64,000 nt of DNA, taken from NCBI RefSeq assembly GCF_053078305.1, contig NZ_CP166879.1; one strand, 5' to 3'. Each line of letters opens with the position of its first letter. The first letter of the stretch is position 1. Under the pieces are notes generated by a model. That model had not been told where the DNA came from and made no database searches. It saw only the letters and a list, made by a program, of their open reading frames with translations. The position numbers were made by a program, and so were the translations under genes. This document shows, piece after piece, positions 58,052 through 62,632 of this stretch.

Positions 58052-61000
58052 ATGAACAGGACCAGTCCCCATTATTGTCGCCGCTCAGTACTTTCCTTAT
58101 TGATATCTGCCTTGATATATGCCCCGCCCGGGATGGCGGCCTTCACTTCTGATGTTATTGGTGTGGTAAACGATGAGACTGTAGATGGCACCCAAAGAGT
58201 AGATGAACGAGGTACAACAAATAACACTCATATTATCAACCATGGCCAGCAGAATGTTCATGGCGGGGTATCTAATGGAAGTCTTATTGAATCTGGTGGA
58301 TATCAAGATGTAGGAAGTCATAACAATTTTGTGGGGCAGGCTAATAATACAACCATTAACGGTGGCAGACAGTCAATTCATGACGGGGGTATTTCCACAG
58401 GTACGACAATCGAGAGTGGCAATCAGGACGTTTATAAAGGTGGTATCAGCAATGGAACGACAATTAAGGGTGGTAATTCACACATAAGTGGGGGGACTGC
58501 GAATGGAACAATCATTGATGGTGGCAGCCAACGAGTAACAACTCAGGGGCATGTCGACAGTACAACGATAAATAAGTCTGGCTCTCAGGACATCACGCAA
58601 GGAAGTCTGGCAACGAACACAACCATAAATGGTGGTCGACAGTATGTTGAACAGAGCACAGTAGAAACAACCACCATTAAAAATGGCGGTGAGCAAAGAG
58701 TATATGAGAGCCGTGCGCTGAACAACACGATTGAAGGCGGAACTCAGTCTCTGAATAGTAAGTCAACGGCAAAAAATACGCAGATCTATGCTGGTGGCAC
58801 GCAAATTGTTGATAACACCAGCACCTCGGATGTTATTGAAGTTTATTCCGGCGGCGTGCTTGATGTTAGAGGTGGTACGGCAACTAATATTACTCAGCAC
58901 GATGGAGCCGCTTTAAAAGTAACGACTTACGATTTGACGGTGAGCGGTACGAATAGTGAAGGGGCATTCTCCATCCACAATAAAGTGGCTGACAATGTGT
59001 TGCTGGAAAACGGAGGCCATTTAGAAGTATCTCATTCTGCAAACAAGACGATTATCAAAGATAAAGGAACAATGTCAGTTTTAACCAATGCTAAAGCTGA
59101 TGCGACCCGAATAGATAATGGCGGGGTTATGGATGTTGCCGGAAACGCGACAAATACCATAATTAATGGTGGCACACAGAATATTAATAATTATGGCATA
59201 GCCACAGGCACCAATATCAACAGCGGAACGCAAAATATCAAAAGCGGCGGGAAAGCTGACACAACAATTATATCCTCCGGGAGCCGGCAGGTTGTTGAGA
59301 AAGATGGTACGGCAATTGGCAGCAATATTAGCGCCGGAGGCTCGCTGATTGTCTATACCGGCGGTATTGCACATGGGGTTAACCAGGAGACGGGCAGTGC
59401 TTTAGTTGCCAACACGGGTGCAGGGACTGATATCGAAGGATACAACAAGCTCTCTCACTTCACTATTACCGGAGGGGAGGCTAATTATGTTGTGCTGGAA
59501 AATACCGGCGAACTGACGGTAGTGGCTAAAACCTCGGCGAAAAATACTACCATTGATGCTGGCGGTAAGCTGATTGTCCAGAAGGAGGCTAAAACAGATA
59601 GCACCAGACTTAATAATGGCGGCGTTCTGGAGGTTCAGGACGGTGGTGAGGCTAAGCATGTTGAGCAACAATCCGGCGGCGCATTAATTGCTTCCACGAC
59701 CTCCGGAACACTTATCGAAGGAACCAACAGTTATGGTGATGCTTTCTACATCAGGAATTCAGAAGCTAAAAATGTAGTGCTGGAAAACGCTGGCTCATTA
59801 ACAGTCGTCACTGGTTCCCGGGCAGTTGATACGATTATTAATGCCAACGGCAAAATGGATGTTTATGGAAAAGATGTTGGCACTGTACTCAATAGTGCTG
59901 GCACCCAAACAATATATGCCAGTGCCACTTCTGATAAAGCAAATATCAAAGGTGGCAAGCAAACGGTATATGGATTAGCCACTGAGGCAAATATCGGAAG
60001 TGGTGAACAAATTGTTGATGGTGGGTCAACAGAGAAAACACACATCAATGGCGGTACGCAAACCGTTCAGAATTATGGTAAGGCAATCAATACCGATATC
60101 GTCTCTGGCCTACAACAAATTATGGCAAACGGGACATCGGAAGGTTCCATTATTAATGGGGGTTCACAGGTAGTTAATGAGGGCGGTCTGGCTGAAAACT
60201 CGGTGCTTAATGACGGCGGCACACTCGATGTGCGGGAGAAAGGCAGCGCAACGGGGATACAGCAGAGTAGTCAGGGCGCTTTGGTTGCAACCACCAGGGC
60301 GACGCGGGTCACAGGAACACGCGCGGATGGCGTCGCGTTCAGCATCGAGCAGGGTGCGGCGAACAATATCCTGCTGGCAAATGGCGGCGTGTTAACCGTG
60401 GAGTCAGACACCTCTTCTGACAAAACACAGGTCAATACGGGCGGACGGGAGATCGTCAAAACAAAAGCCACTGCGACAGGCACGACGCTCACCGGCGGTG
60501 AACAAATTGTCGAGGGTGTGGCAAATGAGACAACGATTAACGACGGCGGAATACAAACAGTTTCAGCTAACGGAGAGGCAATAAAAACAACGATCAATAA
60601 AGGCGGAACGCTGACAGTCAACGATAATGGCAAAGCGACAGATATCGTCCAGAACAGCGGTGCCGCTCTCCAGACGAGCACGGCTAACGGTATTGAAATC
60701 AGCGGTACTCACCAGTACGGCACCTTTTCCATTGCCGGAAATTTAGCGACCAATATGTTGCTGGAAAATGGCGGTAATTTATTGGTATTAGCAGGTACCG
60801 AAGCTCGCGACTCCACGGTTGGCAAGGGTGGGGCAATGCAAAACCTGGGTCAGGACTCCGCCACAAAGGTTAACTCTGGTGGGCAATATACCCTTGGGCG
60901 GTCAAAAGATGAGTTTCAGGCTCTGGCCCGGGCAGAAGATCTACAGGTCGCTGGCGGGACGGCAATCGTCTACGCAGGTACGCTGGCGGATGCATCGGTC

Positions 61001-62632
61001 AGTGGCGCGACAGGAAGCCTGTCGTTAATGACGCCACGGGATAATGTTACGCCAGTAAAACTTGAAGGGGCGGTCCGGATTACCGATAGCGCGACATTAA
61101 CTATCGGAAATGGCGTCGATACCACGCTTGCCGACCTGACGGCTGCCAGCCGGGGCAGTGTCTGGCTTAACAGCAATAATTCCTGTGCAGGTACCAGCAA
61201 CTGCGAATATAGAGTAAACAGTTTGCTACTCAACGACGGTGATGTTTATTTATCAGCACAAACAGCAGCGCCTGCCACAACTAACGGTATCTACAATACG
61301 CTGACAACCAATGAACTTTCCGGCAGCGGTAATTTCTACCTGCATACCAACGTTGCAGGCTCCCGCGGTGATCAACTGGTCGTCAGCAACAACGCCACTG
61401 GTAATTTTAAAATCTTTGTTCAGGATACCGGCGTCAGCCCTCAGTCTGACGACGCGATGACGCTGGTGAAAACAGGGGGAGGGGATGCTTCGTTTTCGCT
61501 GGGCAATACTGGCGGTTTCGTTGATCTTGGGACCTATGAGTATGTCCTGAAAAGCGATGGCAACAGCAACTGGAACCTGACCAATGATGTCAAACCCAAC
61601 CCGGATCCCAACCCAAATCCCAACCCAAATCCGAAGCCGGATCCAAAACCAGACCCAAAACCGGATCCGAAACCAGACCCGACTCCCGAGCCAACGCCGA
61701 CACCCGTTCCGGAGAAACGCATCACGCCTTCTACCGCAGCCGTACTCAATATGGCAGCAACATTACCGTTGGTATTTGATGCTGAGCTAAACAGTATTCG
61801 CGAGCGGTTGAACATAATGAAAGCGAGTCCACACAACAATAATGTCTGGGGGGCGACGTATAACACCCGTAATAATGTCACCACCGATGCGGGGGCCGGG
61901 TTTGAGCAGACGCTGACCGGAATGACAGTGGGGATCGACAGCCGTAATGATATTCCTGAGGGGATTGCGACGCTGGGCGCTTTTATGGGTTATTCCCATT
62001 CACATATCGGTTTTGATCGCGGAGGATATGGCAGTGTGGGCAGTTATTCTCTGGGCGGCTATGCCAGTTGGGAACATGAAAGTGGTTTCTATCTGGACGG
62101 TGTCGTGAAGCTGAACCGTTTTGAAAGTAACGTAGCCGGTAAAATGAGCAGCGGTGGAGCCGCCAATGGCAGTTACCACAGCAACGGGCTGGGCGGTCAC
62201 ATTGAAACCGGGATGCGATTTACCGATGGTAACTGGAACCTGACGCCGTATGCATCGTTAACGGGGTTCACCGCTGATAACCCCGAATATCATTTATCCA
62301 ATGGCATGAAATCGAAATCAGTCGATACCCGCAGTATATATCGTGAACTGGGCGCAACGCTGAGTTACAACATGCGTCTGGGAAACGGTATGGAAATTGA
62401 GCCGTGGCTGAAGGCGGCTGTGCGCAAAGAATTTGTCGATAATAACCGGGTGAAGGTGAATAATGACGGTAATTTCGTCAATGATTTGTCGGGCAGACGT
62501 GGAATATACCAGGCAGGTATTAAAGCCTCATTCAGCAGTACGTTAAGCGGGCATCTTGGGGTGGGGTATAGCCATGGTGCCGGTGTGGAATCCCCGTGGA
62601 ACGCGGTAGCTGGTGTGAACTGGTCGTTCTGA
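58052..62632 (+). CDS. ypjA: Large AIDA-type autotransporter adhesin (repetitive passenger, Pro-rich linker, C-terminal beta-barrel); YpjA-like
   Basis: ORF 57923..62632; signal peptide MNRTSPHYCRRSVLSLLISALIYAPPGMAA; many degenerate passenger repeats; PNPDPNPNPNPKPDPKPDP.. linker; C-terminus ..GVNWSF typical of an autotransporter barrel; start placed at ATG 58052 (gagga 9 bp upstream). Confidence 0.85.
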   Translation: MNRTSPHYCRRSVLSLLISALIYAPPGMAAFTSDVIGVVNDETVDGTQRVDERGTTNNTHIINHGQQNVHGGVSNGSLIESGGYQDVGSHNNFVGQANNTTINGGRQSIHDGGISTGTTIESGNQDVYKGGISNGTTIKGGNSHISGGTANGTIIDGGSQRVTTQGHVDSTTINKSGSQDITQGSLATNTTINGGRQYVEQSTVETTTIKNGGEQRVYESRALNNTIEGGTQSLNSKSTAKNTQIYAGGTQIVDNTSTSDVIEVYSGGVLDVRGGTATNITQHDGAALKVTTYDLTVSGTNSEGAFSIHNKVADNVLLENGGHLEVSHSANKTIIKDKGTMSVLTNAKADATRIDNGGVMDVAGNATNTIINGGTQNINNYGIATGTNINSGTQNIKSGGKADTTIISSGSRQVVEKDGTAIGSNISAGGSLIVYTGGIAHGVNQETGSALVANTGAGTDIEGYNKLSHFTITGGEANYVVLENTGELTVVAKTSAKNTTIDAGGKLIVQKEAKTDSTRLNNGGVLEVQDGGEAKHVEQQSGGALIASTTSGTLIEGTNSYGDAFYIRNSEAKNVVLENAGSLTVVTGSRAVDTIINANGKMDVYGKDVGTVLNSAGTQTIYASATSDKANIKGGKQTVYGLATEANIGSGEQIVDGGSTEKTHINGGTQTVQNYGKAINTDIVSGLQQIMANGTSEGSIINGGSQVVNEGGLAENSVLNDGGTLDVREKGSATGIQQSSQGALVATTRATRVTGTRADGVAFSIEQGAANNILLANGGVLTVESDTSSDKTQVNTGGREIVKTKATATGTTLTGGEQIVEGVANETTINDGGIQTVSANGEAIKTTINKGGTLTVNDNGKATDIVQNSGAALQTSTANGIEISGTHQYGTFSIAGNLATNMLLENGGNLLVLAGTEARDSTVGKGGAMQNLGQDSATKVNSGGQYTLGRSKDEFQALARAEDLQVAGGTAIVYAGTLADASVSGATGSLSLMTPRDNVTPVKLEGAVRITDSATLTIGNGVDTTLADLTAASRGSVWLNSNNSCAGTSNCEYRVNSLLLNDGDVYLSAQTAAPATTNGIYNTLTTNELSGSGNFYLHTNVAGSRGDQLVVSNNATGNFKIFVQDTGVSPQSDDAMTLVKTGGGDASFSLGNTGGFVDLGTYEYVLKSDGNSNWNLTNDVKPNPDPNPNPNPNPKPDPKPDPKPDPKPDPTPEPTPTPVPEKRITPSTAAVLNMAATLPLVFDAELNSIRERLNIMKASPHNNNVWGATYNTRNNVTTDAGAGFEQTLTGMTVGIDSRNDIPEGIATLGAFMGYSHSHIGFDRGGYGSVGSYSLGGYASWEHESGFYLDGVVKLNRFESNVAGKMSSGGAANGSYHSNGLGGHIETGMRFTDGNWNLTPYASLTGFTADNPEYHLSNGMKSKSVDTRSIYRELGATLSYNMRLGNGMEIEPWLKAAVRKEFVDNNRVKVNNDGNFVNDLSGRRGIYQAGIKASFSSTLSGHLGVGYSHGAGVESPWNAVAGVNWSF

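Follow-up and report, generated by a model that had tools for sequence, protein, structure and literature searches.

The locus analyzed here lies near the end of a 64,000-nt stretch of E. coli DNA from contig NZ_CP166879.1 (assembly GCF_053078305.1), hereafter called the window, and it is occupied by a single long open reading frame (ORF) on the + strand. In the ORF listing this frame runs from a GTG codon at 57923 to 62632, and from the ATG at 58052 it continues uninterrupted to the stop codon over 1526 aa. Comparison of the encoded protein with its counterparts in three E. coli strains revealed amino acid identities of 97.5% (YZMc3-1), 96.6% (O157:H7), and 96.1% (K-12 YpjA) in end-to-end alignments that are broken by only two 2-aa indels. 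RefSeq names all three counterparts "adhesin-like autotransporter YpjA/EhaD," and the gene occupies the conserved position of a YpjA/EhaD orthologue, with ypjCB upstream and the ssrA/smpB junction downstream. On the strength of this end-to-end identity and the common neighbors, we are highly confident that the window gene (58052..62632, + strand; intact, 1526 aa plus stop according to the ORF listing, Pfam, NCBIfam, and protein alignment) is the chromosomal ypjA of E. coli, known as ehaD in enterohemorrhagic E. coli (EHEC), and that it encodes a classical type Va autotransporter adhesin of the AIDA-I type.

A megablast search of 5426 complete E. coli genomes located at least 80% of the locus in 2432 of them (45%), and the best match displayed 98.8% DNA identity. 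The surrounding 20 kb, including the gab genes, also match E. coli at ~98%. The strain that carries this copy of ypjA is thus an E. coli that is itself absent from the compared collection of complete genomes.

The protein has the layout of a classical type Va autotransporter, i.e., an N-terminal Sec signal (recognized by inspection), a passenger, and a C-terminal barrel ending in an aromatic residue, all within one polypeptide; domain boundaries were fixed by homology to solved passengers and barrels. The passenger spans aa 30-1054 (58139..61213, + strand). It matches the Pfam family AIDA (PF16168) in 11 stretches (E=4.8e-144) and the NCBIfam model TIGR04415 for strand-loop-strand repeats, again in 11 stretches (240.7 bits). 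When aa 32-1054 were autocorrelated with BLOSUM62 and compared with 200 shuffles, the signal stood out at lag 18 (z=10.1) and, less strongly, at lag 19 (z=7.7), and harmonics followed at 35-37 and 54; this 18-19-aa periodicity corresponds to ~55 degenerate repeat units. Five residues (Gly, Thr, Asn, Ala, and Ser) account for 54% of the passenger, which also includes five copies of a larger module whose end reads (L/V)L(E/A)N(G/T/A)G (aa 317, 481, 576, 774, and 903). A search of the sequence against the Protein Data Bank (PDB) matched the passenger to the solved beta-helices of Ag43 (4kh3, 7kob, and 7koh) and TibA (4q1q). A first-pass annotation, made by a model from the letters and the ORF listing, had described a beta-helical adhesin built from dozens of degenerate repeats; the periodicity bears out the repeats, and the AIDA repeats together with the homology to Ag43 and TibA support the fold.

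The C-terminal end of the passenger is a pertactin-type (autochaperone) domain at aa 1055-1177 (61214..61582, + strand), which was detected by Pfam (PF03212, E=4.8e-45). In the PDB comparison, aa 1055-1178 correspond to residues 414-534 of pertactin (1dab_A), the C-terminal part of that structure. The autochaperone domain of EhaD has previously been assigned to a defined cluster (PMC5767081).

The translocation unit occupies aa 1221-1526 (61712..62629, + strand) and comprises a helix predicted to span the pore and, after it, a beta-barrel of 12 strands. Pfam places the autotransporter domain PF03797 at aa 1265-1504 (E=3.3e-45), the NCBIfam barrel model TIGR01414 covers aa 1081-1526 (E=4.5e-99; 332 bits against a cutoff of 16), and aa 1244-1526 align to the whole BrkA translocator (3qq2_A, residues 2-284 of 284). 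Homology to Vag8 (chain 7akv_G) begins at aa 1217. The protein terminates in GVNWSF, with a terminal aromatic residue as in outer-membrane beta-barrel proteins. From this architecture, export of the passenger to the cell surface is predicted. The first-pass annotation had recognized the autotransporter and its C-terminal barrel, and had named a missing barrel or a broken frame as grounds for giving up that reading; the barrel is readily detected and the frame is intact. Its word "giant" is generous for 1526 aa.

Despite the shared repeats, the protein is neither Ag43 nor AIDA-I proper: it scores 338.6 bits (Ag43) and 257 bits (AIDA-I), both far below the NCBIfam equivalog cutoffs of 1200. Its repeats are of the ~19-aa AIDA-I/TibA type that is a target of O-heptosylation, as judged from TIGR04415 and the 18-19-aa periodicity. 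No heptosyltransferase gene of the aah/tibC type is annotated by RefSeq within 6 kb on either side of ypjA in the three strains compared, and the genes upstream of ypjA in the window are ypjCB and gene fragments.

We also examined where the strains diverge. Residues 351-1500 are 96-100% conserved between the strains compared, and it is the N-terminal tip of the passenger that varies. The differences cluster at aa ~100-350 (58350-59100), where 40-47 of every 50 residues are identical vs 48-50 of 50 in nearly all other parts, and one 2-aa indel falls within this segment. The pattern suggests recombination or diversifying selection acting at what would be the distal end of the helix.

The start of the gene had been considered ambiguous. 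A Shine-Dalgarno-like GAGGA, read from the sequence, lies on the + strand at 58039..58043, and 8 nt separate it from the ATG at 58052 that follows. The motif overlaps an alternative in-frame ATG at 58043, and that codon is therefore left without usable spacing to a ribosome-binding site (RBS). RefSeq begins ypjA at the Met corresponding to 58052 in K-12, O157:H7 strain 611, and YZMc3-1. Conservation is of no help in choosing between the starts, since all four compared sequences have the same 150 nt upstream. The ymgJ/ycgH paralogue tells nothing on this point either, its deletion junction falling just before the RBS.

The ATG at 58052 opens a complete signal peptide with n-, h-, and c-regions. 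Inspection and hydropathy predict a Sec signal peptide at aa 1-29 (MNRTSPHYCRRSVLSLLISALIYAPPGMA, followed by AF; 58052..58138, + strand), with a basic n-region (R3, R10, and R11) and a hydrophobic core at aa 12-24 whose mean Kyte-Doolittle hydropathy reaches 2.5. The residues G-M-A before the predicted cut and A after it fit the -3/-1 rule, and cleavage after aa 29 is likely. Some large autotransporters do have long signal sequences, and since the frame is open from 57923 and has an ATG at 58043, translation from either codon would lengthen the N-terminal signal region in a similar way. We find this hardly credible, given the RBS spacing, the signal peptide, and the RefSeq starts described above. 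In addition, the 43-aa extension matched nothing in Pfam at E≤0.1 and no ESPR at E≤1, and an extended signal peptide from 57923 was ruled out on that basis. The gene thus starts at 58052, and the GTG at 57923 is only the mechanical limit of the ORF; the stop-free in-frame leader at 57923..58051 (+ strand) lies outside the protein and is left out by RefSeq. The first-pass annotation had preferred 58052 for its signal peptide and gagga RBS, and the spacing, the signal-peptide pattern, and the RefSeq starts confirm that choice.

Between the end of the pertactin-type domain and the barrel unit lies a proline-rich linker, KPNPDPNPNPNPNPKPDPKPDPKPDPKPDPTPEPTPTPVP, at aa 1181-1220 (61592..61711, + strand). 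It is flanked by the last pertactin-type residue (aa 1177) on one side and by the Vag8 and BrkA homologies (from aa 1217 and aa 1244, respectively) on the other, which is where the first-pass annotation had put it. All 40 residues follow an X-Pro pattern, with Pro at every second position (20/20), and the sequence, Tandem Repeats Finder (TRF), and the strain comparison below together identify this (X-Pro)20 spacer as a length-polymorphic segment encoded by imperfect 12-nt repeats. The claim that these DNA repeats are near-perfect was overstated. TRF reported a period of 12 nt at 61595-61677, with 6.9 copies and 80% matches, and a second repeat search found seven copies with 67-81% identity to the first. 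The sole perfect duplication, read from the sequence, is at 61607..61630 (+ strand), where the 12-nt unit CCCAACCCAAAT, encoding Pro-Asn-Pro-Asn, stands twice in tandem.

Two terminator-like hairpins on the - strand fall inside the linker (61619-61670) and arise from its GGATCC/GGTTTTGG repeat pattern; most likely they are functionless by-products of the repeats.

With the aim of gaining insight into linker length across strains, we used a 501-nt query centered on the linker, which found matches in 2524 genomes. From these, 60 records were taken at even rank steps, and one truncated record (H90) was dropped. Among the remaining 59, the matched length was 495 nt in 30 records (-6 nt relative to the window), 489 nt or equivalent in 20 (-12), 501 nt as in the window in 7, 513 nt in one (+12), and 585 nt in one (+84). 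Linker length therefore differs across strains, in five length classes. Nine linker sequences were read base by base, and in each of them every length change consists of whole codons and lies inside the repeats. The unit CCCAACCCAAAT is present three times in FDAARGOS_946 and once in M18 and CRE389, and such variation between one, two, and three copies is what slippage or unequal exchange would be expected to produce. CEC08123 has one 6-nt unit fewer, and K-12 and KFu015 display another linker arrangement (PIPNPKPDP...). The largest expansion was found in TB06052, a freshwater isolate from the Galapagos (NZ_CM129848.1, 2744036-2745220), with ~34 Asn-Pro dipeptides encoded by many AACCCAAATCCG-type units; its ypjA is annotated at 3411 nt only and has a shorter passenger. 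At the other extreme, a protein search revealed two more E. coli alleles with tracts of just 19 and 21 aa.

These alleles raise the question of how fast the linker changes. Five records that are O157:H7 or cluster with O157:H7 (H32-H36) all have 501 nt, and the sampled laboratory derivatives of K-12 all have 495 nt, in a clonal sample that consists of few assemblies and not of populations. A phase-variable contingency gene is expected to differ in repeat number among close isolates, and the lengths in this small sample are uniform. In such a gene a copy change would also shift the frame or alter a promoter, and the linker indels are multiples of 3 nt inside the coding region. With units of 6 and 12 nt, an on/off switch by frameshift is impossible. 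It could still be argued from the 12-nt tandem repeats, and from the several length alleles in the species including the large (NP)n expansion, that the linker is a hypermutable contingency locus, in which frequent slipped-strand mispairing brings about rapid phenotypic or antigenic switching. We consider this very unlikely, since all the linker indels seen are in frame, identity among the repeats is just 67-81% and no more than two copies in the window are perfect, and length is uniform within the sampled clonal groups. Linker length is instead subject to lineage-level allelic drift via slippage or unequal exchange, which is slow and in frame and is not phase variation. The first-pass annotation had proposed the linker as a likely site of slipped-strand length variation, and strains do differ by gain and loss of 6- and 12-nt units. 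Three points escaped it, namely that the gene is the known ypjA/ehaD, that the DNA repeats are only ~80% alike, and that every length difference is a multiple of 3 nt, with a single length in each of the sampled clonal lineages.

X-Pro tracts are not limited to YpjA. A protein homology search with the C-terminal 487 aa, which returned mainly partial or paralogous clusters (YejO-like proteins and other genera) rather than full-length YpjA and is not an allele census, uncovered tracts of 10-49 aa at the matching position in autotransporters of E. albertii, Citrobacter, Salmonella, Klebsiella, Rahnella, and Leminorella, as well as in the E. coli paralogue YejO. The X residues of these tracts are quite different. 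Linker position and composition are thus conserved and the sequence is not, as expected of an unstructured or extended spacer. Judging from composition and position, and by analogy with the spacer of TonB, the (X-Pro)20 tract is most likely an extended, polyproline-II-like, non-folding spacer that would hold the helix clear of the barrel and of the lipopolysaccharide (LPS) layer; at 3.1 A per residue, its 40 residues would span ~12 nm.

The length alleles also allow a more speculative idea, i.e., that selection tunes (X-Pro)n to the thickness of the surface layer in each lineage (O-antigen or capsule), so that the tract serves as a ruler for clearance of the adhesin tip, with (NP)~34 as the extreme case. 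Behind it stand the lineage-specific in-frame alleles of ~19 to 75 aa within E. coli, with no serotype link in evidence, and we regard such tuning as decidedly unlikely.

The secretion of type Va autotransporters has been reviewed (PMC9289746), and the steps described there allow us to propose how the window protein would reach the surface. The 29-aa Sec signal peptide would direct it to the periplasm. Homology and general knowledge of the family suggest that the C-terminal ~280 aa would then be inserted as a 12-strand barrel via BAM, the NWSF terminus being a usual end of outer-membrane proteins, and that the segment just before the barrel would thread the pore as a helix. The ~1150-aa passenger would be exported from its C to its N terminus, either through or alongside the barrel. 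Its folding would be nucleated at the pertactin-type autochaperone domain and would proceed outward into a right-handed beta-helix of ~55 rungs of 18-19 aa each. The X-Pro tract would act as a spacer, set between the pore helix on one side and the folded passenger on the other, and gain or loss of whole units of its imperfect 6- and 12-nt repeats gives the lineages in-frame spacers of different length. When expressed, the surface-exposed helix would, following the literature, promote adhesion and biofilm formation. Indeed, EhaD/YpjA has been linked to biofilm formation in Shiga toxin-producing E. coli (PMC12547504, PMC4076661), and YpjA is counted among the biofilm-forming autotransporter adhesins, with a beta-helix predicted along the whole passenger and, according to the same review, no structure or mechanism published (PMC9289746).

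The intact ypjCB upstream (464 aa, with DUF5507 and DUF5508) occupies 55722..57116 on the + strand and was identified by NF050179 (936 bits against a cutoff of 650). It is found at the matching position in K-12, O157:H7, and YZMc3-1; in K-12 it is a frameshifted pseudogene, and the RefSeq starts of ypjCB differ by strain. On the other side, convergent with ypjA, lies ssrA, the gene for transfer-messenger RNA (tmRNA), at 62793..63155 on the - strand (ARAGORN; Rfam RF00023, 295.8 bits). It is located 160 nt 3' of ypjA with nothing inserted between them, and the integration site is unoccupied in this strain. In K-12, genes of the CP4-57 prophage (ypjF, yfjZ, and others) follow downstream of ypjA, whereas in the window ssrA follows directly. 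O157:H7 and YZMc3-1 carry other islands at this place, with different inserted DNA in each. Homology to K-12 ends ~22 nt inside the 3' end of ssrA, as expected for an att-site duplicate. An Rfam scan of 54000-64000 found nothing beyond the tmRNA and one transfer RNA (tRNA).

Some side observations concern the DNA upstream of ypjA. The stretch 52000-58000 is low in GC (33-41%), and a tRNA with the anticodon CAT lies at 54895-54969. Just upstream of ypjA, the RefSeq annotation includes part of a recombinase gene and an ORF of 39 aa, which correspond to 57477-57644 and 57868-57987 in the window. Taken together, these features resemble what is left of an old island. In addition, ~330 bp upstream of ypjA (57703-58022) are ~93% identical to the ymgJ region adjoining minCDE in many E. 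coli genomes, where the segment runs straight into the final ~345 nt of an autotransporter barrel. From its sequence, the copy on the ymgJ side looks like an internally deleted ypjA paralogue that retains the upstream region.

Several points weigh against a functional, surface-exposed adhesin held out by a length-variable spacer. On the + strand, a consensus-based scan of 57100-58052 turned up nothing resembling a sigma-70 site. The ypjA gene is lost, truncated, frameshifted, or disrupted by an insertion sequence (IS) in many strains. The placement of the indels within the linker was confirmed in 9 of the 59 sampled genomes. The signal-peptide cleavage site and the pore helix were placed by inspection and homology. 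Finally, the literature yielded no experiment on the Pro-rich tract, and its spacer role derives from composition and position.

The first two of these points bear on whether the gene is used at all. In the promoter and terminator scan, 13 and 12 sites were counted in all, which does not clearly exceed the means of 8.9 and 6.7 obtained with shuffled sequence. Given the lack of a sigma-70-like site upstream and the limited retention of the locus among complete genomes, the gene may be silent or rarely expressed in the window strain. Inactive alleles take several forms: CRE389 has a 1-nt frameshift outside the X-Pro tract; in F765 (NZ_AP026082.1) an insertion of IS1203 (IS3 family) together with a deletion truncates ypjA, with the breakpoint at the 3' end of the linker repeats (~61674 in the window); and H2 and H15 carry ypjA with IS1 and IS3 insertions. 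The inactive alleles seen thus arise outside the linker or by means other than a change in its length. A reading of ypjA as a silent, decaying relic, intact here by chance and with passenger and linker free of selection, would account for these alleles, for the absence of a promoter-like site upstream, for retention of at least 80% of the locus in just 45% of complete genomes, for the paralogue next to ymgJ that is cut down to a ~345-nt stump, and for the adjoining low-GC remnants. We nevertheless regard it as unlikely. Neither the window strain nor any of the three strains aligned end to end has a break in the 4.6-kb frame, and most of the sampled records have a ypjA that is intact by RefSeq annotation. 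Moreover, the linker indels all preserve the frame, the conservation of residues 351-1500 noted above is hard to align with relaxed selection, and expression of the protein confers a biofilm phenotype according to the literature. We therefore retain the interpretation of the window gene as an intact ypjA adhesin gene.

The literature and RefSeq already cover this gene, the family and architecture of its product, and the biofilm phenotype. The new detail is modest: spacer length is polymorphic across E. coli, always in frame, and falls into five or more classes, one allele being a large (NP)n expansion. Since spacer length varies between alleles, it should be taken into account wherever the YpjA translocator serves for surface display or adhesin typing. 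The polymorphism is a by-product of low-complexity coding repeats and not a switch, and its importance beyond correct annotation is slight.

Comparison with known systems places these observations in context. The closest is YpjA of K-12 (b2647), or EhaD of EHEC O157:H7, with which the window protein shares domain order, start codon, and neighbors; the K-12 protein is likewise 1526 aa long. The window allele has an O157-type linker, which is 2 aa longer than that of K-12 and different in sequence. It also lacks 2 aa near aa 329 and is more divergent at aa 100-350. A review groups YpjA next to Ag43, AIDA-I, and TibA, with self-association not shown for YpjA (PMC9289746). Common to YpjA and these proteins are the ~19-aa AIDA-type repeats, the beta-helix homology (to Ag43 and TibA), and the pertactin-type junction domain, whereas the YpjA passenger is about two times as long and ypjA has no adjacent aah/tibC-type gene.

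The linker itself resembles the Pro-rich tract of TonB, (Glu-Pro)n(Lys-Pro)n, which is an extended, rigid spacer. Both alternate X-Pro with charged X residues, and aa 1179-1223 give weak compositional matches to the TonB Pro-rich region (NF008084) as well as to trypanosome PARP. TonB is, however, an unrelated protein of another compartment, and the two tracts are alike in composition without sharing descent. As for length polymorphism, the nearest parallel is pertactin of Bordetella, another autotransporter with repeat regions, whose pertactin-type domain is common to YpjA. The repeat regions of pertactin vary in copy number between isolates, and polymorphic region 1 was reportedly described by King et al. 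in 2001. The two differ in where the repeats lie: those of pertactin form immunodominant surface loops on the helix, whereas the tract of YpjA is a spacer between passenger and translocator.

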